Below, one piece after another: positions 26,719 to 45,821 of a stretch of 64,000 nucleotides of DNA. Both the position numbers and the translations under genes were made by a program. Where the stretch lies: the NCBI GenBank assembly GCA_948909305.1, contig CAQWRG010000005.1, positions 4,716 to 68,715 on the forward strand, read 5' to 3'. The stretch is from an uncultured Lachnospiraceae bacterium (lineage in GTDB: Bacteria > Bacillota > Clostridia > Lachnospirales > Lachnospiraceae). The notes under the pieces were generated by a model, which saw only the letters and a list, made by a program, of their open reading frames with translations, had not been told where the DNA came from and made no database searches. How positions within the stretch are numbered: position 1 is the first letter of the stretch; each line of letters opens with the position of its first letter.

Positions 26719-26743
26719 ATTAAAACAATGTGGGGGAAATGAA

Positions 26744-28840: not shown

Positions 28841-28858
28841 TGGTAAGAGGAGAGAGAA

Positions 28859-31800
28859 ATGGGAAGAGGAGCGGACAACTTTTATCTGATTTTAGGGCTG
28901 GATTTCTTAAAGCCGGAATCTGACCAGAAAGTCATACTAAAACGCCTTAATGAAAAACAGAAGTTTTGGGATAAAAATAGGGAGCACAGGGAAAAGGGAC
29001 CTAAATATCGGCAATATAGCCAGTGGGTGCCAATTATCGCAAGCACGATGGCAAAGGAATCCTCACGCAATGCAGAAGCGAACGACGCGAGGGCATATGT
29101 GCAGCAGCGTCTGAGTGAAAATAAAAGGCATTTAGGCGGAAAGCAGAAGATTGATTCCTCTACGGCAGAGGCGATGATGGAGCTGTGTGGGCTTAGCGTA
29201 GAATTAAAAGATTTGTTTGAAAAGCTGGCGAATGTGCAAATATCGGATGAGAACGAAGAAATAAAAAAAGAAGATCCAAATCCGAAGCCAACTGGATTTG
29301 CAAGATTTTCCAAGTTAAAAGGTTCAGAGAAATATTTGTCCGTATTGAGAAAAACAGATTTATATCATTTTTTGGCGGACAGTGAAGAACAGGCAGATCA
29401 AATCGGAATCAGAAACCTGTCCGGAAAAGATTTGCTGGAAAAACATTTAGCGCCCATTAAAAAGGCATTTGAACATGACCGTGGAAATGAGGGTACGGCA
29501 GTCAAAGAGTTAGCATCTCTTTGCGAAGATATATTTGATCCTGCCCATCCAGAAAGGAAGGAAGAATACGACCTCTATTTAATCTGGAAGCAAAAAGATG
29601 AGATCATAACGAAAATGGTGGCTTTTTCCGGTAAAAACAGAAAACTGGAGCAGGGACAGCAGGAACCTTTTGTTGATGCCCTGACCCAGATTTTGAAAGA
29701 CAGGGAATCGGCGGTAAAAGTTTTTCAGCAAATTTGCATATTTAAAGACATTTCGTTTTCTTCTGTACAGGAGAACAAAAACAGGGTGGCGTGCGGGCAC
29801 TGTTTTGCGATGGTGGACATTTCCCATGGAGAGCGTAAATGCTCAGTCTGCGGCAGTGACTTATACATCAAATGCCCGAACCCGGATTGTAAGAAAGAAG
29901 TCCTTGCATCTTCGAGAGCCTGCGGCTACTGCGGGACGGATATGAATTTAGCGCAAAAGGCGGAACAGCTTTGCAATATGGCAAAGGCGGCGATTGCCAG
30001 TATGGATATTGCAAAAGCAAGGGGCGCCCTTGTGAGGGCGGAACAGCTTTTGAAGGGATATGCTAAAACGGTAAAGTTAAGCGCTGAACTTGAGAAATTG
30101 GAACGGTCGTTTTCGAAGGAACTCGAAAATTTGGATGCATTGATTGCAAAAAAAGAATTTTATCACGCGAATGATGTATTAAAAACAATTTTGCAAAAAG
30201 CGCCGACAGCGCAGATTGCTCAGGCTGTCTTGGTGGAAAATGCAGTCAAAGAAGCGGAAAATCTTTATCAATCAGCGCTTACAAAGAAAACGGAAGGTGA
30301 ATTGATTCAGATATGTTCCCAGATTGTCAACTTGTGTGTGGATTATCCGGGAGTAGAGGCTCTGATTTTAAAATTTCCTCCGAAACCTGTTTCTAATATT
30401 AAAATTTTGGCGGATACAGCTACATGCGTTAATACATTGACATGGGATAAAAGCCCGTCAGAAGGAGAGATTTGCTATAAAATTATCCGAAAAGAAAATA
30501 CTGCGGCCGCATCGGTTGGAGATAAAAGCGCGGAAGAAATTGGAGAGGCGGGGATTCCCCGTTTTGTAGATGAACATGTAAGAGCCGGAGTGGATTATTA
30601 TTACAGTATTTATACAATCCGCGCAGGAGCCGCATCGGAGCCTGCGTTTGCCCATGCAGTAAATTTGGCGGAAGCGAATTTAATCCGGACGGAAGAAGGA
30701 GATGGTTATGTCAGGGCGGAATGGAAACCGTTAGGAGGACATGCCGCCGCGGAAGTCTGGCGGATAGAAGGCGAGACGCCGCCGTGTCGCGGTGAAGGCG
30801 AAAGAATTACATCGGGCAGTAATTATTTTATGGACGACGCCGTAGAAAATGACCGCGCATACAGTTATCTTATTACGGTGAAATACCAGACTGGTGGAAA
30901 AAGCGTTTTTACGAATGGGGTTTCCATTACGCTGTTCCCATCTTCTGTCCCAGAGCCGGTAGAAGATTTGACGGTTTCCAATGTGGAGGATGATATCTTT
31001 GAAGCGGTTTTTTCGTATGAAGGTGAGGAAAAAGTGTCGCTTTACTGCGCAGAGCAGAGAACCTCATTTCAGTATGGAGATATAGTCGGCATGGATAAGG
31101 TGACGGCAGCTTTAAAGCCGCTTGAGATTCTTTCATCGTCGAAAAACAGCGTAAGGTTCCGTTTAAAAGACAATAAAAAATATGTCATTGTGCCGGTAAG
31201 CATTAAACATAATACTGCGGTCATCGGGGAATGCGCCGCTGTAGCCAAAATGGAAAAAATCCAGATAAAAGGTATGGAATGGGTTAATTCCACGCTGCAT
31301 ATCCGCATGGAATGGCCAAAAGAAGCCGTTTTAGCGATTGCTCTTTATGGAACAGACAGTTATGCCAAAAATCTGGAAGACCGCGCAGGCAAAACGTCTC
31401 GGAGCGTCAGTAAAAAACAATTTGAAGCGGACGGCGCGCTTTTACTGAAAAACATAGAGAAAAAAGATTATTTTATTACGTTATTCTCCGCATGCAGAGT
31501 CAATGGGGAGCTTGTCTATTCAGATGGCGCACGGCTGACTTTTACAAATAAGGAAAAGACGGATATCCACTATACGATCAGGCGGAAAGGCTTTCTCAAC
31601 AAACAGGTAGAAATTGAATTTAAAAGCACAGTAAAAACGTTTGCCCTGCCAGAGATTGACCTGATTTCAAAACAACATGCCGTTCCGGTTTATGCAAATT
31701 CAGGAAACCTTGCGCGACACATTGCGGCTCAGGAAGTCTGTGGAAGCCACATTGAGCTGTTTGAAGCAAAATCTTTTCCCAAAGACAGTTATATCAAAGC

Positions 31801-31876
31801 GTTTTTTACAGATGAAGATATAAATGACAAATTAAGCCTGCGTCCGGCGTATGGCACGGATTTTAAAGTAAATTAA
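28859..31876 (+). CDS. Large multidomain protein with an N-terminal degenerate J-like domain (HPD motif lost), two zinc ribbons, a helical region and FN3/Ig-like beta domains
   Basis: The N-terminus NFYLILGLDF..ESDQKVILKRLNEKQKFWDKN aligns to J-domain helices II/III (DYYEILGV...KAYRKLAMKYHPDKN) with HPD replaced. Zinc ribbons CGHC...CSVCG and CPNPDC...CGYCG. The C-terminal half predicts all-beta. Confidence 0.55.
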   Translation: MGRGADNFYLILGLDFLKPESDQKVILKRLNEKQKFWDKNREHREKGPKYRQYSQWVPIIASTMAKESSRNAEANDARAYVQQRLSENKRHLGGKQKIDSSTAEAMMELCGLSVELKDLFEKLANVQISDENEEIKKEDPNPKPTGFARFSKLKGSEKYLSVLRKTDLYHFLADSEEQADQIGIRNLSGKDLLEKHLAPIKKAFEHDRGNEGTAVKELASLCEDIFDPAHPERKEEYDLYLIWKQKDEIITKMVAFSGKNRKLEQGQQEPFVDALTQILKDRESAVKVFQQICIFKDISFSSVQENKNRVACGHCFAMVDISHGERKCSVCGSDLYIKCPNPDCKKEVLASSRACGYCGTDMNLAQKAEQLCNMAKAAIASMDIAKARGALVRAEQLLKGYAKTVKLSAELEKLERSFSKELENLDALIAKKEFYHANDVLKTILQKAPTAQIAQAVLVENAVKEAENLYQSALTKKTEGELIQICSQIVNLCVDYPGVEALILKFPPKPVSNIKILADTATCVNTLTWDKSPSEGEICYKIIRKENTAAASVGDKSAEEIGEAGIPRFVDEHVRAGVDYYYSIYTIRAGAASEPAFAHAVNLAEANLIRTEEGDGYVRAEWKPLGGHAAAEVWRIEGETPPCRGEGERITSGSNYFMDDAVENDRAYSYLITVKYQTGGKSVFTNGVSITLFPSSVPEPVEDLTVSNVEDDIFEAVFSYEGEEKVSLYCAEQRTSFQYGDIVGMDKVTAALKPLEILSSSKNSVRFRLKDNKKYVIVPVSIKHNTAVIGECAAVAKMEKIQIKGMEWVNSTLHIRMEWPKEAVLAIALYGTDSYAKNLEDRAGKTSRSVSKKQFEADGALLLKNIEKKDYFITLFSACRVNGELVYSDGARLTFTNKEKTDIHYTIRRKGFLNKQVEIEFKSTVKTFALPEIDLISKQHAVPVYANSGNLARHIAAQEVCGSHIELFEAKSFPKDSYIKAFFTDEDINDKLSLRPAYGTDFKVN

Positions 31877-31905
31877 AGAGGATTGCTATTTAGGAGGAAG
31901 AAGAA

Positions 31906-33144
31906 ATGGCAAAAAAATACACATGTCCCTATTGTTTTAAAGAGCATGAATTTGAAGATGTGGAATTTCGGTGTGTCAATGGGTTTTGCAGTGAGAAAAC
32001 GCAAGATGAAAAATACGCCCAGTATTTGGGGTTAAAGAAGGAATCAATGCCGCTGACAAACGCGACATTTTGCGCGAAAACGGTTTTGCCGAAATTGTTC
32101 CGCGGCCGTTATATGCCGATGTGGGAGAATTGCCCGTTTTGTGAAACAAAGACGTCAATCCGGGTTTGCCCGGACTGCCATAATGAGCTTCCGGAAGGAA
32201 TCCAAGATAATGAAGATATGATAATCGCGATTGTAGGGAGCCGTGATACGGGAAAAACGCATTTTATTTCTGTATTAATCAATGAACTGCAAAAGAGGAT
32301 ATGCCCTACGGTTTTCAATGGAATTTTTAATCCTATGAATGACGCGGTGCATAATCATTATATGGATCATTTTTACAACAGGGTTTATATACAAAAACAG
32401 TTACAGGATTTAACGGCGACAGCAAACCAGAGAGGGGAAATATCCGTAAGGAAGCCGTTAATTTATGAAATGATTATTCCGTTGGACGACAAAGGGAAGC
32501 GTGTCCGCAAGTTTACATTTGTATTTTACGATACCGCGGGTGAAGATTTAAAAAGTGAAGCGGTGATGAAGACGGTAAACCGTTATATCTGTAAAGCGGC
32601 GGGAATTATCTTTTTGCTTGACCCGCTTCAGATTATGGAGCTGCGGAACAATATGGATGAAGATGAAATCAAAACGTCTTCTTCTATTCTGGAAAATGAG
32701 ATTGTATCGCAAGAAATGGTTTTACAGAGAATTGCAAATGTAATCCGTGAGGATAAAGGAATGAAAAAATCGCAGAAAATCAATGTGCCTACAGCAATCG
32801 CGTTTTCGAAATTTGATGTGTTAAAACGTTTCTTCCCAAAAGGCAGCATAGTATTGGAGCCTTCGAGTTATCTGCGGGAAGGGCAGCTTGATAAAAGCGA
32901 ATGGTTTACTGTAAGCAATGAGATAGAAGCGATGCTCAATGAGTGGGGAGCGGGCGGATTTGCCACACAGGTAAAAATGACGTTTGACAGGTATACATAT
33001 AGCGCCGTATCGGCTTTGGGGCAGCGTCCGATATTGTCGAAATCGGGAGGGGCGAAAGAAATTGCAAGCCAGCCGATGCCGCATCGGGTAGAAGATCCGT
33101 TTTTATGGCTCTTAAAAGAAAACCGGGTTATCAAAGAAAAATAG
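31906..33144 (+). CDS. Double zinc-ribbon protein fused to a Ras-like small GTPase / P-loop domain
   Basis: Zinc ribbons CPYC...C..C and CPFC...CPDC. G1 IAIVGSRDTGKTHF, G3 FVFYDTAGED (DTAGQE-like), G4-like FSKFD. Confidence 0.55.
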   Translation: MAKKYTCPYCFKEHEFEDVEFRCVNGFCSEKTQDEKYAQYLGLKKESMPLTNATFCAKTVLPKLFRGRYMPMWENCPFCETKTSIRVCPDCHNELPEGIQDNEDMIIAIVGSRDTGKTHFISVLINELQKRICPTVFNGIFNPMNDAVHNHYMDHFYNRVYIQKQLQDLTATANQRGEISVRKPLIYEMIIPLDDKGKRVRKFTFVFYDTAGEDLKSEAVMKTVNRYICKAAGIIFLLDPLQIMELRNNMDEDEIKTSSSILENEIVSQEMVLQRIANVIREDKGMKKSQKINVPTAIAFSKFDVLKRFFPKGSIVLEPSSYLREGQLDKSEWFTVSNEIEAMLNEWGAGGFATQVKMTFDRYTYSAVSALGQRPILSKSGGAKEIASQPMPHRVEDPFLWLLKENRVIKEK

Positions 33145-33156
33145 GGAGGAAAAGAA

Positions 33157-35436
33157 ATGGGGATAAATCAGGCGCTTTTTACTTCTTCTGCCCGTGGAAT
33201 CAGTAAGGGCGGGGGATTGGGCTTACATAGTTATAACAGGACATGCAGTGACATGGAACTGAGGGAATTTGAGCAGGGGTTCTGCCACTATTCCTATCAG
33301 GGCGACAGCAGCGAAATACCGAATCTGCCCAAAAAAATGCTGTATAAGAAAATTGATGGAGATCGGTATCTATTGGCAAGCGTGACTTATTTGGGAAAGG
33401 ATTATCTCAAGGAGCAAGGGCGTATGGGAAACCTTCTTAGCCATATGTATTCTTTTGAGAGAAAAGACCTTACGAAATATCCGATGGAATTTTGCGCAAG
33501 CCCTGATTTCCGTTATGAAATGGAATCTGATGAAGTGGACGGCAGCAGGCGCGTAGAGTATCTTTCTGAAGTAAGCGGCGTTAGGACGGGGACGAAAGTC
33601 ATGCGTGAAACTGTACAGGCATTTTTAGAAGCAGAGCCTTGGAGAATTGATTTTTTCAGAAATCTTTTAGCGGCGGTTTTTCATAGGGATGCAGTCCATA
33701 AAGTAATCCTTTCCGACAGCCATGAACATATTTTGATGTGGCTTGCGGCGGTTGAATTTGCTCTGCCATTGCAGTGCGCAATAGAACTTTCTTTCTCCAG
33801 TTATGAAGAAAATCCAATGATTTCGGAGTTTGATATCCGCGGCATGGCATCTGGGCTTAGCGTGGGAAGTTGTGAAGAATACGCCGCAAGCGGGCAGTAT
33901 TATGTATTTGACGGGAATCATCAGGCTTATCCCAAATTTGATATAACGGAGGGTTATTTTCAGTATGGAATTTTATTTGGCATAGACAGTATTCAGGGGT
34001 TTTGTGATTTTATGAAATCATATGGATATTATAGCGTAGATATGGATATTTGCGCCGGATACAATCTCTACCAAATGGTACAGGGAGGAATGGATCTTCT
34101 GGGAGAAAAGGAGTTTCAGGATGCAGTTTCATTTGAAAGCAAGTATGGAGATCGCGCCACATACAGGCAGATTTTAGAAAACCAGTTTGAAAAAATAGAA
34201 GGAAATTACACACCAGATCTTTCAGTGTTAAAAAGCATTTATGTCTGGCTGATTGGGTATTTTCAGAAACCGCTTACGATAAAAGACTTGGAGTTTGCGG
34301 TCGCATACGCTGTTCGGCTGGAGCGGTATGGAAAGGACAATACTAAACTTGTAAATGCAAGAAAGCAGATGTGGGAATTTATCTATGAAACGATGGTGCA
34401 GAGCAAACAGAAAACGGCGCTTGCTTTTTTGCTTGAGAAGTTAAAAGAGGCGGGATTGTATGAACATATTGGAGAGTTTAGCCGTTATCTGATCCAGTTT
34501 GCAAACGAAGATACGGCTGCAAAAAGGCTTGGCCGTCTGTTCACTATGCTGTGGGAGGCTGTGCCGCAGACAGAATACCGGTATTTCGATGCGGTTGTTG
34601 AGACAGAAGCGGACCGGCTTGCCGCATATGATGGAAAAGAGCAGTACAGGGAAGCGCTGCTTGCTTTTTTGAAAGTTCAGGAACTGGGATATGGGCAGGT
34701 GCATGGGAAGGGAATGGAAAAGCTGATAGCCTTTCTATCGTGCGGAACAAATTTCGAAGATTTAAAACCCAGAAAACAGGGGCTGATTCATAGAAAAAAA
34801 GAAAACCGTGACGAGCTGGAACAGCTTCAGGCAAAAGCCGCATTTGAAGCGTTTAATTATGCGCAGAAGCATAACAAAAATATATCTATTGCAAACATCA
34901 GGCTTTTGCATTTAGGCAAGTGCATCCAAAATGCGTTTGAATTGGAAAAACCGCTGGAAAAGGTTAAAACGCTCCGGATTTATTCGGATTATCCGGTGGA
35001 TATGGAACGGATTTCGCATGATGAATTTGAGTTTTATTTGGATATTCTGTGTGAGACGATTTTTACAATGCAGTTAGATAAGTCGGATTATATGCAGCTT
35101 TTGACGTATTGGATTTTGGAAAAACGGCAGAAAAGCATATTAATGCAAAAATTTTTGTCCGGTGAAATGAACAGCGTAAAAAAGGATAGTGAAGCAGGCG
35201 GGCTTATAAGTCTTCTGTCAGCGCTTAAGAATCTGAATGATGAGGAATATACAGAAGCGTTTCAAAAGAATCTCTTTTTGCTTAAGGAATCACAGCGCGT
35301 TAGGGCGGCGGATTTAATGAAAAAAGAGTATGGAGCGGACAATGAAGGCTATCGGTTTTGGCGGCAGTTAATACGCGGAGAAAAACCGACTGAAAAAAGT
35401 CTGACAAAGAAATTTCCGAAATTTGGGAAAAGGTAA
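33157..35436 (+). CDS. Hypothetical 759-aa protein, predicted cytoplasmic and alpha-rich
   Basis: A 12-nt gap with an RBS couples it to the GTPase gene. No recognisable motif. Confidence 0.5.
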   Translation: MGINQALFTSSARGISKGGGLGLHSYNRTCSDMELREFEQGFCHYSYQGDSSEIPNLPKKMLYKKIDGDRYLLASVTYLGKDYLKEQGRMGNLLSHMYSFERKDLTKYPMEFCASPDFRYEMESDEVDGSRRVEYLSEVSGVRTGTKVMRETVQAFLEAEPWRIDFFRNLLAAVFHRDAVHKVILSDSHEHILMWLAAVEFALPLQCAIELSFSSYEENPMISEFDIRGMASGLSVGSCEEYAASGQYYVFDGNHQAYPKFDITEGYFQYGILFGIDSIQGFCDFMKSYGYYSVDMDICAGYNLYQMVQGGMDLLGEKEFQDAVSFESKYGDRATYRQILENQFEKIEGNYTPDLSVLKSIYVWLIGYFQKPLTIKDLEFAVAYAVRLERYGKDNTKLVNARKQMWEFIYETMVQSKQKTALAFLLEKLKEAGLYEHIGEFSRYLIQFANEDTAAKRLGRLFTMLWEAVPQTEYRYFDAVVETEADRLAAYDGKEQYREALLAFLKVQELGYGQVHGKGMEKLIAFLSCGTNFEDLKPRKQGLIHRKKENRDELEQLQAKAAFEAFNYAQKHNKNISIANIRLLHLGKCIQNAFELEKPLEKVKTLRIYSDYPVDMERISHDEFEFYLDILCETIFTMQLDKSDYMQLLTYWILEKRQKSILMQKFLSGEMNSVKKDSEAGGLISLLSALKNLNDEEYTEAFQKNLFLLKESQRVRAADLMKKEYGADNEGYRFWRQLIRGEKPTEKSLTKKFPKFGKR

Positions 35437-35451
35437 GGCGGAGATATAAAT

Positions 35452-36495
35452 ATGGCGTTTAAAAGAGCGAATCGGGAGATTGTTCAAAACATAAAAAAGG
35501 GATATTACTACCGGAAAATGCCGCCTGCGCTTCAAAAAGGCTATGAAATTGCGGCAGAGGGGATTCTTTCTTTTCAGAAAAAAGTAAAGATAGCGGATTG
35601 CTCTGGCAAGGAAGAAATGGAGCGGATTATCCGCGCTGTCCTTATGGAACATCCTCAGTTTTTTTATTTGAATGCAAAAGATATTGGCGTTGTAAATGCG
35701 GGGGAGTCATTTTCGTTTTCCTTTCATTATTTGTATGACAAAAAAGAAGCCATTCAGCTATTGCAGCAGATAGACAATCGGGCAGACTATATTTTGTCAG
35801 AAATCATTACGGACGGCATGACGGATTATGATAAATGCGTGGCAATTCATGATTATGTTACAAATCATATCCGTTACAATTTTTCTGCGGCGGCAGTTTC
35901 CTATATTTACGATGCATTTACGATAGAAGGCCCTATCCTAAAAAATCAGGCGGTTTGCGAAGGGATTGCAAAGACCATCGCTTATTTACTGGACAAGCTT
36001 TCTGTCAATCATTTAATTGTGGCAGGTTTTAGTGACATTGATGGGGTTCATGCGCCGCACGCATGGAATATGGTGGAGTTAGAAGGAAGTTATTATCATA
36101 TCGATGCGACATGGGATTTACAGGAAATCAATCATTTTACGAACTGCTCTCATATGTATGTAAATTTAGACGATGACTCCATGCTTGAAAACCATGATTG
36201 GGAATTGGGGGACTATCCGTCTTGTGATAAACGGGCAGAGAACTATTATGTAAAAGAAGGGCGTTTTTTCCGGTCAATGCGAAGCTTTGAATTGTATGCG
36301 CAGAAATTTTTACAGGAGGGGCAGTCTTTTATGGACGCCAGGTTTGAAGATGTATTGGATTTGCCTGATGAGAATGGGAATTATTTGGCGGAAATAATTC
36401 AGAAAAGCGCTGTGTATGCCGGGAAAAGATGTCAGGTATCTTTTGTCTTCCATCCATGCAATTATGTGTTTCAGGCGAATGTGATGTATGGATAA
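35452..36495 (+). CDS. Transglutaminase-like superfamily cysteine protease/transglutaminase
   Basis: Cys-His-Asp core AVCEGIAKTIAYLL ... HAWNMVEL ... YHIDATWD. Confidence 0.75.
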   Translation: MAFKRANREIVQNIKKGYYYRKMPPALQKGYEIAAEGILSFQKKVKIADCSGKEEMERIIRAVLMEHPQFFYLNAKDIGVVNAGESFSFSFHYLYDKKEAIQLLQQIDNRADYILSEIITDGMTDYDKCVAIHDYVTNHIRYNFSAAAVSYIYDAFTIEGPILKNQAVCEGIAKTIAYLLDKLSVNHLIVAGFSDIDGVHAPHAWNMVELEGSYYHIDATWDLQEINHFTNCSHMYVNLDDDSMLENHDWELGDYPSCDKRAENYYVKEGRFFRSMRSFELYAQKFLQEGQSFMDARFEDVLDLPDENGNYLAEIIQKSAVYAGKRCQVSFVFHPCNYVFQANVMYG

Positions 36496-36519: not shown

Positions 36520-37296
36520 ATGAAATTTTCAAATTATAGAAAACAAGATGTATATAAGATGCTGTTAAAGGCGGCAGTGGCATTCGTGATTCTGATTGTG
36601 GCTTTGTTTACAGTTTACAGGATTGCAAAGCCAAAAGTGGATATGTGGCTTTTAGAGAGGAAAGAGGCTAAAGAAAAAAGAGAAGCGGAAGAAAAAAAGG
36701 AAGCGGAAGAAAAAGCGGAAAGGGAATCCGAAGAACAAAGAATGCAGGAACTTGCGGAAGAATCGGATCGGATAAGCGACGGGCAGGAACAGAAAGATTC
36801 TGAATATGAGGAAGAATCAGAAACGGAAGAACCGGAAACGGAAGAATCGTCTATTCATCGGTATGAGTATGTAGTGGAAGATTGTACATGGCAGGAAGCG
36901 TTTGAAACATGCAAGTCAAAAGGGGGCTGTCTTGTCAATATCGACGACGAAGCGGAGTTTGCCTATATTACAGCGGAAATTGAAAAAAACGGTATGAAAG
37001 AGATCTTGTTTTATTTGGGAGCATCACAGGATTCGGAACAAAATTACCGTTGGCGGTCGGCAGAAGGCGCGTTTAGCGGGGGTATCCTAAATGGAGTGGG
37101 ACATTCTTGGCACAGCAGATATTGGATGCAGGGAGAACCCAGTTATTATGACGGAGAAATAGAAGAAAATGTACTGGCTATGCAGTTTTTTGAAAAAGAA
37201 GCGAGATGGGTATTCAATGATGTGCCGGGGGATATTGTGGGAAATTTTTCATATCTCAGTGGAAAAATAGGCTATATCTGTGAATACAGTGAGTAG
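36520..37296 (+). CDS. Type-II membrane protein with an extracellular C-type-lectin-like domain (CTLD), paralog 1
   Basis: Conserved N-terminus MKFSNYRKQD..KMLL, one TM, a Glu/Lys-rich stalk, then the CTLD (CTWQEAFETCKSKGGCLVNID...WRSAEG...WMQGEPS...WVFNDVPGD...YICEY). Confidence 0.7.
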   Translation: MKFSNYRKQDVYKMLLKAAVAFVILIVALFTVYRIAKPKVDMWLLERKEAKEKREAEEKKEAEEKAERESEEQRMQELAEESDRISDGQEQKDSEYEEESETEEPETEESSIHRYEYVVEDCTWQEAFETCKSKGGCLVNIDDEAEFAYITAEIEKNGMKEILFYLGASQDSEQNYRWRSAEGAFSGGILNGVGHSWHSRYWMQGEPSYYDGEIEENVLAMQFFEKEARWVFNDVPGDIVGNFSYLSGKIGYICEYSE

Positions 37297-38603: not shown

Positions 38604-38873
38604 ATGACGATTTCAAATTTTAGGGGAAAAGATAAAAAAAGGATGCTGCTGATTGCCGGGAGTTTAGCGGGAATTGGATTGATTCTGGCATTGGCGGCAA
38701 TCATCGCAGGAGTACGGTTTTTGGGGCCGGTTGTGTTGGATACAGTGGACTGGATTGTTCAGAATGAAAATGAAGTGAAGGGCTGCCTATTGGTTTTCGT
38801 TGGTATCCCTTGCTTTATAATTATAATGTTTCGGAAAAGAAAACGTGAAAAAGAAAGGAAAAAACAAAAGTAA
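38604..38873 (+). CDS. Anchor-only paralog of the CTLD membrane-protein family (89 aa: N-terminal motif plus TM, no lectin domain)
   Basis: MTISNFRGKDKKRMLL plus a TM helix, then a short basic tail. It looks like a truncated copy immediately upstream of a full-length paralog. Confidence 0.4.
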   Translation: MTISNFRGKDKKRMLLIAGSLAGIGLILALAAIIAGVRFLGPVVLDTVDWIVQNENEVKGCLLVFVGIPCFIIIMFRKRKREKERKKQK

Positions 38874-38922
38874 AAAATATGGAACGTTGTATATTGTTTG
38901 GAAAAAATGGTGGAAAAGAAAA

Positions 38923-39975
38923 ATGAAGTTTTCAAATTTTAGAGGAAAAGATGCAAAGAAAATATTTCTTGTAATGGCGGCAATTTCTTTTGCAGTTGCC
39001 ATTGTGGCGATAATTGCAATTAGTCAGGCAGTCCGGTTTTTTAGGCCGAAAGTGGAAGAAGTGTTTTCGGAGTTTAAAGAAACAAGGGAAAAAGAGAGAT
39101 TGGAACGGATAGAAAAGGAAGCATGGGAAAAGGAAATGGATATACCGTATTCCGCATTAGAATATAATGGACACTATTACTATGTATATGACGATGCCGA
39201 GTCGTGGGAAGATGCAGAATGGAAATGTGAGCAGCTTGGAGGGCATCTGGCAACGATGACGACGTCTTCTGAAGATAAAGCGGTTTATAAGTATGTGTCT
39301 TCTAAAGAGTATGAATATGTTTTTTTCGGATTGTATATGGATATGGAGCAAATTAGTTGGAATTGGATTATCACAGAAGGGACGGAGTATGCGAACTGGA
39401 CAGAAGGGGAGCCGGATCTTGGAAGTGACAAAGATTGTATGTATGGGTCATATTACCGTTATGATCAGTCGAAATGGAGGGCCATTTCTACTAATGACAC
39501 TTCATCTTATGTATGTGAATGGGATTCAAAAGAGCAGGGCAGGAAAAACAGAGAAAGAATTGAAGCAGATAATGAAGAAACAGGCTATTTAAATCCGATT
39601 GATCCGGTTCTTACATATAAATCGCGTCGTTATATGATTTTAGAAGGTGAAGCAACATGGGAAGAAGCAAATGAAAGATGCGAAAGTCTGGGTGGGCATC
39701 TTGCTGTGATAAATAACAAAAAAGAAAATAAAGCTCTATATAAATATATGATAGAACGAGGCTACGAGAGTGTGAATTTTGGATATACGGACCAAAAAGA
39801 AGAAGGAAAATGGGTTTGGGCAGAAGGCTATGAATCTGATTATACAAATTGGGGAAAGAATCAGCCGGATAATTTTCAGGGAGATGAAGATTATGCAGCC
39901 TTTTATGCAGATGCAAAATATAAGTGGAATGACAGCATATGGAGCGGCGTTTATTTTTGTGAGTGGGAAAAATAA
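38923..39975 (+). CDS. Type-II membrane protein with two tandem CTLDs, paralog 2
   Basis: Start was re-chosen at MKFSNFRGKDAKKIFL (38923). Two CTLD repeats: WEDAEWKCEQLGGHLAT...EPD...YVCEWD and WEEANERCESLGGHLAV...KWNDSIWSGVYFCEWE. Confidence 0.7.
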   Translation: MKFSNFRGKDAKKIFLVMAAISFAVAIVAIIAISQAVRFFRPKVEEVFSEFKETREKERLERIEKEAWEKEMDIPYSALEYNGHYYYVYDDAESWEDAEWKCEQLGGHLATMTTSSEDKAVYKYVSSKEYEYVFFGLYMDMEQISWNWIITEGTEYANWTEGEPDLGSDKDCMYGSYYRYDQSKWRAISTNDTSSYVCEWDSKEQGRKNRERIEADNEETGYLNPIDPVLTYKSRRYMILEGEATWEEANERCESLGGHLAVINNKKENKALYKYMIERGYESVNFGYTDQKEEGKWVWAEGYESDYTNWGKNQPDNFQGDEDYAAFYADAKYKWNDSIWSGVYFCEWEK

Positions 39976-40004
39976 GCAGGCTTGAAAGAAAGGGGAGAGA
40001 TCAA

Positions 40005-40595
40005 ATGTCAGATACATATGGCGTGTTTTTGGCAAGAATGCAGCCTGTCCATAATGCGCATCTGTTCTTAGTGGAGAAAGCGTTAGAGGAAAATGACAAA
40101 GTATTTATTATGCTTGGCAGTGAGAACAAACTGGACATGCTTAGAAATCCGTTTGACATCTCATTGCGGGAAAGGATGCTGCGAGAGTGTTTTGATGAAA
40201 AACAGAATAGAAGAATAAAGGTAGATACATTGCCGGATTGGTCTATGGAATCCGATTTAGAAGGCGCAAAAATCTGGGGACGATATTTTTATTATAATGT
40301 CGTGTCCAGAATCGGGCAGAAAAGATTTTCGCTGTACTATTCAGATAATCCGCAGATATTAGACAGTTGGTTTTTGGATACGGAGGTCTATTCCTTTATT
40401 AGATACCGGAATTTCGAACGAAACTGTATTTTTGAAGGCCTGTCTTCGACAAAAATCCGGAAAGCGTTTATGGAACGGGATTTGGCGTATATTATCCGCT
40501 ACTGTCCACAATCGGTTGTAAACAGGTTTGAATATTTGTCTTCTTATTATAAAGAGGTGACGGAAGATCCAAAAGAGGATTTTTCTATGGAATAA
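40005..40595 (+). CDS. NadM-type nicotinamide-nucleotide adenylyltransferase-like nucleotidyltransferase (HxGH superfamily)
   Basis: YGVFLARMQPVHNAHLFLVEKALEENDKVFIMLGSENK matches the G.F.GRFQPFH.GHL motif of archaeal/bacterial NMNAT. Start was re-chosen at 40005 (RBS AAAGGGGAGAG). Confidence 0.55.
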   Translation: MSDTYGVFLARMQPVHNAHLFLVEKALEENDKVFIMLGSENKLDMLRNPFDISLRERMLRECFDEKQNRRIKVDTLPDWSMESDLEGAKIWGRYFYYNVVSRIGQKRFSLYYSDNPQILDSWFLDTEVYSFIRYRNFERNCIFEGLSSTKIRKAFMERDLAYIIRYCPQSVVNRFEYLSSYYKEVTEDPKEDFSME

Positions 40596-41136: not shown

Positions 41137-42030
41137 ATGGGAGATCGGTTATATAGGGGGAGGAAACTTTTAAACAGTGGCAAGATCCTTCAGAATAGAT
41201 ATTGTATAAAAAAAATGATTGGGCAGGGCGGTTTTGGGATTTCTTATCTTTCGGTAGATTTTGCGCAGGATAAGGATGTCGTGATTAAGGAGTATTTTCC
41301 ATATGGAAAAGCATACCGCGGTGAAACGTCTCAGGTTTTTTTCAAAAATAACAGCGGCAAATATGACATGTTTATCCATGAAGCATCTATTCTGGAAAAA
41401 TTAAAAAATATTGAGGGGATTGTTAAAATCCAGGACTTTTTTTTGGAAAATAATACGGCTTATATCGTTATGGGGCGCTGTAAGGGCATGACGTTACGCG
41501 AGATGGTTCAGAAAAATGGAAGAATGGAAGCGAAAGAATCTTATGTACTGATGGAATCCCTTCAAAAAAGTTTGGAGCAGATACATAGACATGGAATTAT
41601 CCATAGGGACATTTGTCCTGACAATATTATTGTTACAGAAGCAAAAGAAGTGGGACTGATTGATTTTGGATCTGCATTGGATTTAAACAGCCGAAAACAG
41701 CAGCTTGAAGAACCAACTTACCGAACCGGCTTTAGCCCGCCGGAACAATATGAAAAGGGAGGCATGTATGGCGTATGGACGGATATCTATGCCTTTTATG
41801 CGACATGGTATTTTTGTCTGGCAAACGCTGCGCCTCCGGGGGCGGAGGAGCGGTTGGATTGTGACGTGTTTTCCTGCCGCCTGCGTACAGAATTGGAGGA
41901 AAAAAGCGGCTTGATGGAATTACTGGAGAGAGGAATGGCTCTGGATTATAAAAAGAGAAACATTTGGAAAGGGGGTGAATGTTATGGCAATGACAAAAGA
42001 AGAAAAATTTGCTTTACAGAGTATGCTTGA
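41137..42030 (+). CDS. Hanks-type Ser/Thr protein kinase, kinase domain only
   Basis: Kinase domain: Gly-rich loop GQGGFGISY, the VIKE Lys, HRHGIIHRDICPDNII (HRD) and DFGSA (DFG). No PASTA or TM. The 3' end overlaps the RiPP precursor gene by 47 nt. Confidence 0.8.
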   Translation: MGDRLYRGRKLLNSGKILQNRYCIKKMIGQGGFGISYLSVDFAQDKDVVIKEYFPYGKAYRGETSQVFFKNNSGKYDMFIHEASILEKLKNIEGIVKIQDFFLENNTAYIVMGRCKGMTLREMVQKNGRMEAKESYVLMESLQKSLEQIHRHGIIHRDICPDNIIVTEAKEVGLIDFGSALDLNSRKQQLEEPTYRTGFSPPEQYEKGGMYGVWTDIYAFYATWYFCLANAAPPGAEERLDCDVFSCRLRTELEEKSGLMELLERGMALDYKKRNIWKGGECYGNDKRRKICFTEYA

Positions 42031-42157
42031 CGTCTGTGAAAAGAAATTCGGTGAACTTTCAATCGAAAACATCGTAATTTCCAGCGCTTGCGATTCCTGT
42101 TCCGGAAGCTGCAAAGGACATGGGATTTCTGTGTGGACAGCCTGTGATGTGAGGTAA
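41984..42157 (+). CDS. Cys-rich RiPP precursor peptide (58 aa) for the adjacent radical-SAM/SPASM enzyme
   Basis: ATG at 41984 behind AAAGGGGG. Leader-like MAMTKEEKFALQSMLDVCEKKFGELSIENIVI, then core SSACDSCSGSCKGHGISVWTACDVR. It is immediately followed by the rSAM gene. Confidence 0.55.
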   Translation: MAMTKEEKFALQSMLDVCEKKFGELSIENIVISSACDSCSGSCKGHGISVWTACDVR

Positions 42158-42238
42158 GAGGAAACGGCATTACAGAAAAATGCAGGAAAAGAGAAGTCTT
42201 TTCCTGCATATTTGCAAAGAAACGGGGGCGATAGAGGT

Positions 42239-43327
42239 ATGTTAAAAGAAGTCATGCTGATCTTGACAGAAGGCTGCAATCTGTCATGTTCTTATTGTTT
42301 TGAACATTATAAATCGGATAAGAGAATGAAATTTGAGACGGCAAAAAAGATTATCGATGCGGAAATGTCAATGGAAGACGGCGCGGACGAATGCAGGTTT
42401 ACATTGTTTGGCGGCGAGCCATTTTTAGAAAAGCAGATAATTAAAGAGATTTATGGCTATATTGAGTCGAATATGCCAAAGTGGCGAAAAAAGGCAGTTA
42501 TTTTTGTGAATACAAATGGAACATTGCTTGACGCGGAAATGAAGCAGTGGCTTAGAGAGCGGAAGGAACACATCTACTGTGGAATCAGCCTAGATGGGAC
42601 AAGAGAAATGCACAATCAGAACCGTTCGGATTCTTTTGACCGCATTGATTTGGATTTTTTTAGGGAATGCTGGCCAGGACAGAATGTGAAGATGACTGTG
42701 TCAAAAGAGACGCTTCCCAGTCTGGCAGAAGGCGTTATCTTTATCCATGAAAAAGGGTTTCCATGTGGGTGTACGTTTGCATATGGTCTGGAATGGAGCG
42801 ATGATTTAATACACGGGCTAAAAGGACAGCTTGATAAATTAGTGGCGTATTATACTGAAAATCCAAACCTTCCTTTATGCCAGATATTAAATATTGATTT
42901 GACTGGAATCCTGAAAAAACCAGACGCCGGGTTTAAGCGATGTGGGGCTGGAGAGTTGATGAAAGCGTATGACACGGAAGGAAAGTTATATCCCTGCCAT
43001 TCCTTTAGCCCGGTCGGGCTGGGAGAGGAAGCGGGGAAATTTGTGGATTATAAATTGCCTGCAGCGGATATTCACGAAGAAAAACGCTGCGTGGAATGTA
43101 AGTATCATTTTGTCTGCCCGACTTGTTACGGGGTGAATTATATTTATACAGGCTCTGTTTCGAACAGAAGCAAGTGGCTGTGTGAATTTTTCAAATTATG
43201 TGTACAAGCGTCGGCGGTGATTCAATTACGAAGGCTTGAGACAAAGGGGGCAGAGAGATTAGACCAACATGATTATGGGACGCTTCTGGCGATACAGTCT
43301 TGTATTCAGGGGGAAAGCATTTCATAA
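42239..43327 (+). CDS. Radical SAM peptide maturase with a SPASM domain (sactipeptide/ranthipeptide-type)
   Basis: CxxxCxxC as TEGCNLSCSYC. C-terminal auxiliary-cluster cysteines CGAGE...C.......CVECKYHFVCPTCYG. Start was re-chosen at 42239. Confidence 0.7.
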   Translation: MLKEVMLILTEGCNLSCSYCFEHYKSDKRMKFETAKKIIDAEMSMEDGADECRFTLFGGEPFLEKQIIKEIYGYIESNMPKWRKKAVIFVNTNGTLLDAEMKQWLRERKEHIYCGISLDGTREMHNQNRSDSFDRIDLDFFRECWPGQNVKMTVSKETLPSLAEGVIFIHEKGFPCGCTFAYGLEWSDDLIHGLKGQLDKLVAYYTENPNLPLCQILNIDLTGILKKPDAGFKRCGAGELMKAYDTEGKLYPCHSFSPVGLGEEAGKFVDYKLPAADIHEEKRCVECKYHFVCPTCYGVNYIYTGSVSNRSKWLCEFFKLCVQASAVIQLRRLETKGAERLDQHDYGTLLAIQSCIQGESIS

Positions 43328-43344
43328 AATAGGGGGAGAAACAC

Positions 43345-44744
43345 ATGAATCTCATTTATTCCAGACAGGAAATGGAGAAAATCTGTAGGATAATTCTTAA
43401 CTACTGCGAAAAAATACTCAGGGACAACTACGGGGAGGTTTATAAGTGGAGTTTTGGGGAAGAAGTTCCTGTGAAAGTTATAGAGGGCGCGTTGTATAAA
43501 ATCGGAAATGTAAAATATAAATATCCATCTCTAAAAAAAGAAGATATTTTTATTATTGTATCTTCAAGTAACGGCAAAGAAGGAATGGTATTTGGCTTTG
43601 ATGGTATCTATTATAAAGCGGGCGCCTTCCATGAAGCGCAATTTGAGAAGTATGAGGATTGCATCAGTGTAGATTCGTTTACAGATCTGGGCACAGACGC
43701 TAATTATATTTTTAATACGGGCGCAGTTAATGAAATGTTTGCGCAGATACAAAGCGCGCTTCATGGAGATATTCCTGTTAAAGTGAAGAATTATAGCCAG
43801 ACAAAGAGCGATTATGGAAAACATATTGAGAATCCTAAGATTCAGGAAGCGTTTTTGCGTTTTTTAGAAAAAGAGGAGAAAAAGTCAAATGAAGCGGCGC
43901 GGCATTATTGGGAAGAAGCATTTCAACTGACGGATACGGATAAAAAAATAAAGCTTTTATTACTGGGAGTAAAGGAAGGGGATGCTTTAAGTTCGCAGGA
44001 ATTGGGCGAGATGTATATAAAAGGGGAAGAAGTTCCAAAGGACTTAAAAAAGCGGAAGAATATCTCCGGTTTCCTGCAGAATGCGGCTATTCAGAATCCA
44101 TGTATTTTTTTGGCCTGATTTGTATGCAGAAAGGCGATAAAGAAGATTGTTTGGACTGGCTGTGCAAAGCTGCCGTTAAAGGAGATGGAAATGCCTTTAT
44201 GACGCTTGCCAAATATGCGGCAGAGGATACGGATAAAGATTTGATAGAAGCGCGTTTATCAGTATATTTCCGGGAAGTATGCGAGAACGAACAGAATGAT
44301 TATAAAACCAACCGTTTCCTTGGCTGGTGCTATATGACGGGTATTTGCTGCGCGCAAAATTTTGGGCTGGCAAAAATGTATTGGAAAGCCGGAGCGGATC
44401 AGGATGACGTCCGGTGTAAGGTTTATTTGGATATTTGTGGGTTAAACAGAAATGGGGAAGCGTTACAGGCGAAAACTGCGGAAACGGCATCTTCTGATTT
44501 AGAGAGTGCAGAGGAGAATGTTCAGGGCTTTGGGCAGGAAAGAGAAGCAGAGGAGAATAGAGTAAATGGAAAAGCAGTGGCGGCGGTAGTTTTAGGCGTG
44601 TTGTCTTTTCGGGGAGTTTTATGGATGGCTGTTCTTGGATTGATTCTGGGCGTGAGAGCCAGAAAGGAGCAGGGAGGGGCTTTGGCGCTTGTGGGTATTA
44701 TATTGAATACAGCAGTTCTAATGCTTTTTATATTCGCTCTTTAA
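43345..44744 (+). pseudogene. Sel1/TPR-repeat membrane-anchored protein interrupted by a -1 frameshift at a T7 tract (44105-44111)
   Basis: ORFs 43345..44118 and 44100..44744 overlap at a run of seven T. Inserting one T fuses them in frame (..NPCIFFGLICMQKGDKE..). Sel1 repeats span the junction, and a C-terminal TM pair follows. Confidence 0.6.
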
Positions 44745-44774: not shown

Positions 44775-45821
44775 ATGAGGTTGAAGTTATCAAATTACAG
44801 AAAACAGGATATGAAAAAAATGCTGCTTGCGATGGCGGTATTTGCCGCAGTGGCGGCGGCAGTGATTGCGGCGGGGGTCCGCTATGGGATAAAAAAATTG
44901 AAACCGAAAGTGGAAACTGCATTAGCGGAATCAAAAGAGCAAAAAGCAGAGCAGAAGCGCATGGAAGAAGCAAAACAGCAATCGGAGGCAGAACAGCAGA
45001 GCCAAAAGGAAGATGAGTGGGAAACTAAACAGGAAAACAAACAGAATGAAACGGAAAGCCTCCATATACCTACGGATTGTTTCGAATATAAGGGGCACAG
45101 CTATTATTATTTTGAACAGGCTGGCGGCATTACATGGGAGGAGGCGAAAGAAAAATGTGAAGAAAGAGGAGGGCATTTGCTTACCATTGCCTCCAAAAAA
45201 GAACAGAAAGCAGTCTATGGATATATCAATCAATATGTGGGATTTGACTGTGATCTTTGGATAGGCATTCGGGAGCCATGGGAAACATGGGTGACGGGAG
45301 AGCCTGTTTCTTATACGAATTGGGGAGAAGGGGAGCCTGATGGAAGTTATGGACAGTGCTACGGGGCAATCTGTAATGGAGAAAGGAGCGGGTATGGTTA
45401 TCGGATTGATGAAGGGCAGTGGGACGACCTTGGGAATGATGATGAAACAGTAAGCAGGGGCGGATATATCTGTGAATGGGATACGACAGTGGAAGGAAGC
45501 CAGCCTGTGAAAGTGACGAAAGAAACAAAACGGCAGGAAAAAGAGAAAGATTATATAATTCCGGACAGTGGCGCACGGTATCTGGACAGATCGGATATAG
45601 AGGGGTTAGGAAAAGAGGAGCTTCGTTTGGCTAGGAATGAAGTCTATGCGAGGTATGGGCGGTTGTTTGATGATGAAGCGCTGCAAAATTATTTTGATGA
45701 AAAAGATTGGTATCATGGTTCTATTAAGCCGGAAGATTTTAAAGACAGCTTGTTAAATGAATATGAGAAGCAGAATTTGTATCTGATTCTCGATTATGAG
45801 GAAGAAATGGGTTATCGGTAG
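44775..45821 (+). CDS. Type-II membrane protein with a CTLD and a C-terminal YARHG domain, paralog 3
   Basis: MRLKLSNYRKQDMKKMLL plus TM, a Q/E/K-rich stalk, the CTLD (WEEAKEKCEERGGHLLT...EPD...YICEWD) and a YARHG motif NEVYARYGRLFDD. Confidence 0.7.
   Translation: MRLKLSNYRKQDMKKMLLAMAVFAAVAAAVIAAGVRYGIKKLKPKVETALAESKEQKAEQKRMEEAKQQSEAEQQSQKEDEWETKQENKQNETESLHIPTDCFEYKGHSYYYFEQAGGITWEEAKEKCEERGGHLLTIASKKEQKAVYGYINQYVGFDCDLWIGIREPWETWVTGEPVSYTNWGEGEPDGSYGQCYGAICNGERSGYGYRIDEGQWDDLGNDDETVSRGGYICEWDTTVEGSQPVKVTKETKRQEKEKDYIIPDSGARYLDRSDIEGLGKEELRLARNEVYARYGRLFDDEALQNYFDEKDWYHGSIKPEDFKDSLLNEYEKQNLYLILDYEEEMGYR

Follow-up and report, generated by a model that had tools for sequence, protein, structure and literature searches.

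Organization of the locus

We analyzed a 64,000-nucleotide stretch of DNA (here called the window) from an uncultured Lachnospiraceae bacterium (NCBI GenBank assembly GCA_948909305.1, contig CAQWRG010000005.1, positions 4,716 to 68,715 of the forward strand). The window carries a compact cassette consisting of genes for a Cys-rich 57-residue peptide, a radical S-adenosylmethionine (rSAM) enzyme of a type that cross-links peptides, and, in the lineage of the window, a stand-alone protein kinase (Table 1). A first-pass annotation, made from the sequence alone, had described this locus as a sactipeptide- or ranthipeptide-like cluster for a ribosomally made peptide with posttranslational modifications (RiPP). 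Our analysis supports the RiPP reading, given a maturase-like enzyme and a conserved precursor. The class name "sactipeptide/ranthipeptide" serves as a working analogy, because the enzyme attains no curated family cut-off and has no RiPP precursor recognition element (RRE). Sactipeptides are defined by a bond from a Cys sulfur to the alpha carbon of another residue, and ranthipeptides by one to a beta or gamma carbon. The described layout required one small correction: the precursor encoded by the small open reading frame (ORF) is 57 rather than 58 aa long. The rSAM gene starts 81 nt after the precursor stop codon. The Shine-Dalgarno sequence 8 nt ahead of the ATG at 41984 and the 47-nt overlap between the kinase and precursor ORFs, both read from the sequence, are as originally described. 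A hairpin in the spacer between the precursor and rSAM genes had been absent from that description.

TABLE 1 Features of the cassette and its downstream neighbor in the window
Feature	Position	Strand	Basis or remark
Kinase-only Hanks-type Ser/Thr protein kinase, 297 aa	41137..42030	+	Last ~20 codons run into the ribosome-binding site and start of the precursor gene
Shine-Dalgarno sequence AAAGGGGG of the precursor gene, within the kinase ORF	41968..41975	+	Direct reading of the sequence
Precursor peptide gene, 57 aa	41984..42157	+	Nine orthologous ORFs, dN/dS
13-bp stem-loop in the precursor/rSAM spacer, followed by a weak U-tract	42180..42209	+	Hairpins in all nine clade loci
Radical SAM/SPASM peptide maturase, 362 aa, without an N-terminal RRE	42239..43327	+	Motifs, profile scores, AlphaFold fold match
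CxxxCxxC motif of the rSAM	42275..42298	+	
SPASM Cys cluster of the rSAM	~42941..43183	+	
Sel1-repeat protein with a C-terminal membrane anchor, frameshifted	43345..44744 (ORFs 43345..44118 and 44100..44744)	+	Recurring neighbor

A conserved Cys-rich precursor peptide

The small ORF encodes MAMTKEEKFALQSMLDVCEKKFGELSIENIVISSACDSCSGSCKGHGISVWTACDVR, in which a leader of approximately residues 1 to 33 precedes a 24-residue core of approximately residues 34 to 57 (SSACDSCSGSCKGHGISVWTACDVR). Genomic surroundings were retrieved for rSAM homologs 64 to 80% identical to the enzyme of the window, yielding a close clade of nine distinct loci: the window locus itself (WIN), L081 (identical to L082), and L083 to L089. 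According to the first-pass annotation, the RiPP proposal would fail if the small ORF were not conserved in homologous loci; an ORF of 57 to 58 aa lies directly upstream of the rSAM gene in all nine. The leaders of the nine precursors share the pattern L-x2-M-L-x2-C-x2-K-[FY]-G-[DE], with L11, M14-L15, C18, K21, [FY]22, G23, and [DE]24 invariant. Their cores share C36-x2-C39-[ST]-G-[SG]-C43-x-G-H-G-x-S49-[VI]-W51-x-x-C54-D55-[VI]-[KR], i.e., four Cys residues, a GHG turn, and a tail S-V/I-W...C-D, with the Cys residues and the tail invariant. The ratio of nonsynonymous to synonymous substitution rates (dN/dS) ranges from 0.11 to 0.39 (median, 0.19) among the pairs with unsaturated synonymous sites, most pairs being saturated. 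Judged from these sequence comparisons, the small ORF is a real gene under purifying selection, because both its length and its sequence are conserved in nine loci and its dN/dS is approximately 0.19.

A search of 5.8 billion proteins found three relatives of the precursor, and a profile search of 1.84 billion representatives gave five matches, of which three are true precursor-like peptides; small ORFs are under-called in protein libraries, and this rarity is therefore suggestive only. Two more distant relatives retain only C-x2-C-x-G-x-C-x-GHG. No NCBIfam or Pfam model matched the precursor. In viral collections, neither a degenerate DNA pattern for GHG-x-S-x-W-x2-CD nor a protein scan with the rSAM gave a match; among plasmids, the segment of the window from 39.9 to 50.1 kb had no nucleotide match, and a protein search gave distant relatives only.

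An RRE-less radical SAM/SPASM enzyme

The rSAM gene is best read from ATG 42239 rather than from TTG 42212, because the resulting product of 362 aa fits the homolog lengths of 359 to 366 aa. The CxxxCxxC motif (residues 13 to 20; CNLSCSYC in the window enzyme) and the C-terminal SPASM Cys cluster, both noted in the first-pass annotation, are present and invariant among 34 homologs (40 to 78% identity). The former appears as C13-x3-C17-x2-C20 and the latter as a seven-Cys pattern, C235-x12-G-x4-C253 ... C284-x2-C287-x5-C293-x2-C296 ... C315. G248 of the SPASM pattern and G58-G59-E60 of the GGEP motif (residues 58 to 61) are likewise invariant. The Pfam Radical_SAM model matches the enzyme at 44 bits (cut-off, 29.5), and the Pfam SPASM model gives no match despite the motif and the fold.

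Two NCBIfam models align end to end with the enzyme, namely, those of the PapB-type ranthipeptide maturase (NF047865; 150.2 bits versus a cut-off of 340) and the CXXX-repeat-target maturase (TIGR04115; 108.6 versus 350). The SCIFF maturase model (TIGR03974), whose enzymes go with a peptide of six Cys in 45 residues, reaches 82.6 bits versus a cut-off of 425, and the anaerobic sulfatase maturase model (TIGR03942) reaches 60 versus 349. The enzyme is thus nearer to peptide maturases than to the anaerobic sulfatase-maturing enzymes (anSMEs), whose kinship the first-pass annotation had set against its proposal, and no sulfatase gene was found among the window genes scanned. The earlier statement that the system is not of the SCIFF type agrees with the low score of the SCIFF model and with a precursor that lacks the SCIFF signature.

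The absence of an RRE follows from the position of the rSAM motif at the extreme N terminus and from the alignment with CteB, in which CteB residues 97 to 225 correspond to residues 3 to 129 of the window enzyme and CteB residues 1 to 96 have no counterpart. An AlphaFold model built from the 34-sequence alignment (pLDDT, 93.4; pTM, 0.90) finds its best fold match in CteB (PDB 5WGG; TM score, 0.73 to 0.75). Further matches are anSME (0.64 to 0.69), ChlB (0.66 to 0.67), TigE (0.63), and SuiB (0.57 to 0.60), and the model superposes on both CteB and anSME over approximately 360 columns. By motif, fold, and context, the enzyme is a SPASM peptide maturase belonging to an uncurated, RRE-less family.

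The wider enzyme family

A genome scan using one genome per GTDB species, which gives lower bounds, identified at least 524 loci encoding relatives of the rSAM; at the protein level, homologs fell into 318 clusters. The best 80 of these (L001 to L080), all with ≤42% identity, were inspected; they come from Clostridia, Bacteroidales, Planctomycetota, Anaerolineae, Parcubacteria, Spirochaetia, and Methanosarcinales. Together with three loci at 45 to 47% identity, they make up a set of 83 distant loci, most of which contain a small Cys-rich ORF of the CxxxC type directly upstream or downstream of the rSAM gene, a pattern repeated in the three closer loci. The encoded peptides combine a predicted helical leader (L-x2-L ... 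E-x-G) with a core in which Cys residues are spaced by small residues (e.g., CSGSCSGTCSGGC). Clustering of neighboring ORFs revealed little else that recurs, except for ABC exporters in nine loci. The core unit of the wider family is therefore a two-gene cassette of rSAM and peptide. None of six family representatives attained an NCBIfam cut-off, and the cyclophane-forming SPASM maturases YhhB, XyeB, GrrM, and AmcB are detectable as relatives at lower scores. Long precursors also occur in the family, L060 being an example, with lengths of up to approximately 240 aa and C-x3-C repeats by the dozen.

The associated kinase

The kinase ORF encodes a complete Hanks-type catalytic domain alone (Pfam Pkinase, E = 3.8e-30), with the motifs GQGGFG, VVIKE, HRDICPDN (HRD-x4-N), and DFG. 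In an alignment of six orthologs, K51, E82, D158, N163, and D176 are invariant, and the best solved relative is the kinase domain of PpkA (PDB 5HNV; E = 1e-28). Among NCBIfam models, the PknB type scores 115 bits, the LanL kinase domain 104, MADS6 98, and LanKC 73; among PADLOC profiles, which have no cut-offs and on which generic Hanks kinases score alike, mad6 scores 127 bits and several PD-T4-6 profiles score 110 to 121. These similarities do not discriminate between the roles that the kinase may have.

Conservation of the kinase in homologous loci had been named as a check by the first-pass annotation. A kinase-only Hanks protein of 245 to 317 aa is encoded directly upstream of the precursor gene in WIN, L083, L086, L087, and L089, and L084 has the C-terminal fragment of a kinase there, at its contig end; the adjacency is thus kept in six of the nine clade loci, and a kinase lies within 4 kb in seven. 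The same position is occupied in L081/82 by a 1077-aa surface protein, with the kinase beyond it, 3.4 kb upstream; in L085 by a truncated copy of that surface protein, with no kinase in the 8.6 kb covered; and in L088 by a Sel1/transmembrane protein, with no kinase within 6 kb. Other neighbors of the module vary from locus to locus. Pairwise identities are 37 to 44% for the kinase versus 64 to 76% for the rSAM, and the two co-vary (Spearman coefficient, 0.72; nominal P = 0.0025), a correlation that is suggestive only, being drawn from 15 nonindependent pairs.

Screening of the 83 distant loci with a Hanks-kinase hidden Markov model led to the identification of three kinases within 6 kb of the rSAM gene (L055, L006, and L011). 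The L055 kinase was rejected as a linked partner: it lies 2.3 kb from the rSAM gene, is membrane anchored by a transmembrane segment, and is separated from the rSAM gene by unrelated genes. In L006 and L011, a different Hanks kinase (approximately 26% identical to that of the window) abuts the 3' end of the rSAM gene, and the precursor core, SGCASxxCxAWD, is distinct from that of the window. The existence of two arrangements, with kinases of different subfamilies on opposite sides of the rSAM gene, argues for a functional link between kinase and rSAM.

The system of L006 (3317..6749) and L011 (4777..8094) is a variant found in Lachnospiraceae/Tyzzerella metagenome-assembled genomes, with an rSAM approximately 40% identical to that of the window. 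A protein of approximately 285 aa encoded upstream in both loci, and also present in L003 and L009, had no Pfam hit; our guess, to which Pfam lent no support, is a putative ABBA-type prenyltransferase.

A reverse search, in which a profile built from the six clade kinases was run against JGI metagenomes, returned 65 loci, one of which is the window element. No rSAM or precursor was seen near the kinases of the other 64 (24 to 47% identity over the best segment), a result that says little about the clade, which is itself unsampled in these data. The nine reverse-scan kinases that were inspected are large multidomain proteins, several of them encoded beside PP2C-like genes.

The kinase-precursor overlap and the spacer hairpin

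The first-pass annotation had offered two explanations for the overlap between the kinase and precursor genes: coupled expression or a misplaced precursor start or stop. The overlap is real, its junction recurring unchanged in five independent metagenome contigs that carry the window element. In L083, L086, L087, and L089, a spacer of 55 to 83 nt separates the kinase gene from the precursor start, and the kinase closes with a C-terminal helix (...KR-W-x-x-x-E-L-L...). The alignment of the window kinase is lost directly after KKRNIW, from where its ORF runs via the precursor ribosome-binding site to a stop inside the precursor gene. Designed translational coupling and a misplaced start were therefore both rejected, given these spacers in other loci and the loss of the C-terminal helix and stop codon from the window kinase. 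The overlap is a lineage-specific deletion peculiar to the window element and reflects no conserved design; conserved instead is the adjacency of the kinase, on which the first-pass annotation touched only briefly.

The spacer between the precursor and rSAM genes contains a hairpin of 12 to 17 bp in all nine clade loci (z = -2.3 to -6.1), and the stem sequences are unrelated in four of them (L083, L084, L088, and L089). The hairpin fits a conserved structural element, probably a leaky terminator or mRNA stabilizer, which would raise the peptide-to-enzyme ratio.

Genomic context

The module is cargo of a Firmicutes conjugative element. It lies within a long array of same-strand genes; among their products are a TraG/VirD4 coupling protein (48648..50060) with ClpP directly after it, BspA-type leucine-rich-repeat and Ig-like surface proteins, several C-type-lectin proteins, an HSP70 pair with a vWA domain, a GAP1/double-GTPase pair, a transglutaminase, and a CHAT protease beside an MVP-shoulder protein. 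Sister loci have the same gene repertoire in a different order. The cargo at 24970..36495 and 52203..57280 resembles NTP-dependent conflict systems; one such stretch comprises two HSP70-family genes (one fused to vWA), a gene for a 1005-aa protein without a Pfam hit, a weak double-GTPase hit, a GAP1-N2/GAP1-M protein, and the transglutaminase.

A Sel1-repeat membrane protein is encoded beside the module in WIN, L084, L086, and L088 and is a possible fourth component; its Pfam Sel1 and DUF4190/TM2 matches are below or near cut-off. In the window, the reading frame of this gene shifts near 44044-44050, where TTAAAAAAGCGG reads DLKKRKN, not DLKKAEEYL. Four other samples of the element (L159 to L162) are 99.6 to 99.8% identical to the window; relative to it, they show one indel that restores an intact 424-aa Sel1 gene, and they lack window positions 43343..43455 (113 nt). 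Another independent metagenome contig, L090 (OFFH01008516.1), is 100% identical to window positions 41444..42302 (859 nt) and then diverges abruptly within the rSAM gene, just past CSYCF; this break could stem from chimeric assembly or from another strain in which the region is rearranged or carries an insertion.

The C-type-lectin proteins encoded at 38845..39975 and 44775..45821 have N-terminal anchors that resemble each other (SNFRGKD-KK, then a hydrophobic stretch), and an 89-aa ORF at 38604..38873 consists of the same N terminus alone, which suggests a duplicated or recombining family of paralogs. A fourth lectin-domain ORF lies at 36520..37296. A gene resembling nicotinamide-nucleotide adenylyltransferase (CTP_transf_like) occurs near the module, on different sides, in three loci (window, 39963..40595; L081, 9287..9877; L085, 3257..3847), with approximately 77% identity to the window copy; it is probably co-resident cargo outside the module.

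Proposed mechanism and alternative explanations

We consider it likely (probability of roughly 0.7) that the locus is a compact RiPP module within conjugative-element cargo, in which the peptide is the substrate, the rSAM is the cross-linking enzyme, and the kinase is a third component. The 57-aa product would be the substrate, with a predicted helical leader of approximately 33 residues whose outline is common to the wider family and which the enzyme presumably recognizes without an RRE. The rSAM would abstract hydrogen from core residues, with intramolecular thioether bridges between Cys sulfurs and acceptor carbons as the most likely outcome; a nested hairpin of rings around the GHG turn is plausible but speculative. 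By analogy, we hold with moderate confidence that thioethers are formed from the core Cys residues to carbon acceptors, because the nearest characterized relatives form thioethers and Cys is the sole constant of the family cores. The acceptor residues are not predictable, because the C-x3-D/E rule of PapB (PMC9413430) does not fit the core. At the RNA hairpin after the precursor gene, most transcripts would stop or be stabilized, leaving the peptide in excess over the enzyme. Such an excess is common in many RiPP operons. The kinase would most likely phosphorylate the peptide (the invariant S49 or S/T40 being speculative candidates) or else control the module. What the analysis establishes is which genes are present, their conservation and synteny, and the fold and motifs of the enzyme, whereas the thioether chemistry, the ring pattern, the substrate of the kinase, and the biological role of the peptide are inferred.

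Several observations weigh against this reading. The rSAM attains no curated maturase family cut-off in NCBIfam, so its chemistry is not transferable from PapB or CteB, and the core lacks the C-x3-D/E motif that PapB uses (PMC9413430, PMC12715619). No kinase was seen near the module in L085 (8.6 kb covered) or L088 (within 6 kb), and the wider family works without one, 80 of the 83 distant loci having no Hanks kinase up to 6 kb from the rSAM gene. The kinase evolves much faster than the rSAM and resembles stand-alone defense kinases (120 to 127 bits) as much as lanthipeptide kinases (104 bits), and most of its adjacency to the precursor could descend from one ancestral arrangement. Neither a leader peptidase nor a dedicated exporter was found near the module, so that a secreted product is not evident.

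Less probable, if the most serious competitor, is the explanation that only the peptide and the rSAM form a RiPP cassette, with the kinase as an independent traveler of the defense or signaling type (PD-T4-6-like or Stk-like) in shuffled cargo islands. The kinase matches PADLOC PD-T4-6 and mad6 profiles at 120 to 127 bits over its whole domain, although such similarity is expected of any Hanks kinase. The surrounding island is rich in conflict-system genes (the HSP70 pair with vWA, GAP1/double-GTPase, CHAT, and MVP-shoulder genes), L085, L088, and almost every distant relative have the module without a kinase, and a 3.2-kb insertion in L081/82 shows the kinase to be separable. However, the adjacency of the kinase is kept in six to seven of the nine loci while every other neighbor changes, its divergence co-varies with that of the rSAM, and a different Hanks kinase independently abuts the rSAM gene in L006/L011.

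It is unlikely that the rSAM installs a link other than a thioether, either a carbon-carbon or cyclophane link via Trp51 or His46 (of the StrB/SuiB or XyeB/GrrM type) or an epimerization, the Cys residues then forming disulfides or binding metal. W51, H46, and D55 do not vary among the nine precursors, the cyclophane-forming maturases named above are among the lower-scoring relatives, and SuiB is among the fold matches; against this, small-residue-spaced Cys residues are the only constant of the family cores, many of which have no aromatic residue, and the top sequence and fold matches (PapB-type maturases and CteB) are thioether formers.

Similarly doubtful, as an extension of the favored three-component module, is a role of the kinase as a tailoring enzyme that gives rise to a phosphorylated, rSAM-cross-linked peptide, which may act inside the cell, for instance as an effector of the element or its regulator, rather than as a secreted bacteriocin. 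Action in the cell may follow from the lack of a peptidase or exporter and from the setting in an island of conflict-system genes on a conjugative element. Finally, an anSME-like enzyme that oxidizes Cys or Ser of a full-length protein (to formylglycine or similar), with an unrelated or nonfunctional small ORF, would agree with the architecture (rSAM motif at the extreme N terminus, no RRE, and SPASM) and with anSME as the second-best fold match (TM score, 0.68), but it is highly improbable given the low score of the sulfatase-maturase model, the lack of a nearby sulfatase, the purifying selection on the small ORF in all nine loci, and the Cys-rich ORFs that flank the enzyme across phyla.

Relationship to known systems

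PapB makes Cys-to-Asp/Glu thioethers (PMC9413430, PMC10739248). The PapB/PapA system (freyrasin) provides the best-scoring curated model, matched over its full length, and in both systems a SPASM rSAM is encoded beside a short Cys-rich precursor. PapB differs in having an N-terminal RRE (residues 1 to 85; PMC12715619), a C-x3-D/E substrate, and no reported kinase partner, and the window enzyme reaches only 150 of the 340 bits of its model. CteB, which acts with CteA (thermocellin, SCIFF type), has the same rSAM barrel and two-cluster SPASM domain and is both the best fold match and the best solved sequence relative; however, it is only 22 to 24% identical to the window enzyme and carries an RRE of approximately 95 residues, and the window precursor is not of its SCIFF type. 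The TIGR04115 CXXX-repeat family, the second-best model, likewise has no RRE, and precursors of the wider family show the same four-residue Cys spacing. Its member from Anaerococcus prevotii pAPRE01, a fusion protein of 729 aa, shares only 27% identity with the window enzyme and is paired with another precursor (CKLMCVHTCRYSC); the tandem CXXX repeats that define such precursors are not found in the window core, which has a single C-x3-C step. The anSME structures (PDB 4K36-4K39) show the same layout as the window enzyme, but the latter is consistently encoded beside small Cys-rich ORFs, with no sulfatase in the locus.

In class III/IV lanthipeptide synthetases and other RiPP kinases, a Hanks-type kinase domain acts on Ser/Thr residues of the precursor. 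The window kinase shares this domain with LanKC and LanL and matches the LanL kinase region, although this match is no better than those to PknB-type or defense kinases. The lanthipeptide synthetases require a lyase, a kinase, and a cyclase; the window kinase reaches 104 of 650 bits for LanL and 73 of 575 for LanKC, and neither a lyase nor a cyclase was found between 39.9 and 47 kb of the window.

Significance

Cross-linked peptides are well known to arise from pairs of an rSAM/SPASM enzyme and a Cys-rich peptide. The enzyme-peptide pairing described here is thus a known kind of system, whose enzyme family, peptide, and kinase partner are uncharacterized; literature searches on kinases with rSAM/SPASM RiPPs, the CXXX repeat, and Lachnospiraceae thioether RiPPs found no description of it. 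Large surveys have relied on enzymes with an RRE; one survey of rSAM RiPPs restricted its set of 14,695 enzymes to RRE-associated rSAMs (PMC10288494), so that an RRE-less family would be excluded from this largest published compendium. The chemistry is probably conventional, and the link to the kinase is the part that could prove new. If the kinase does modify the peptide, the module would represent a new combination of tailoring chemistries, of which our literature search found no report, and a simple three-gene system to reconstitute. More broadly, the locus belongs to a large RRE-less enzyme family that no NCBIfam model captures, to which the lineage of the window contributes both a precursor of distinctive type (C-x2-C-x3-C-x-GHG-x-SVW-x2-CD) and a conserved kinase, and the combination of an RRE-less enzyme with a still-conserved leader motif bears on how such enzymes recognize their substrates.

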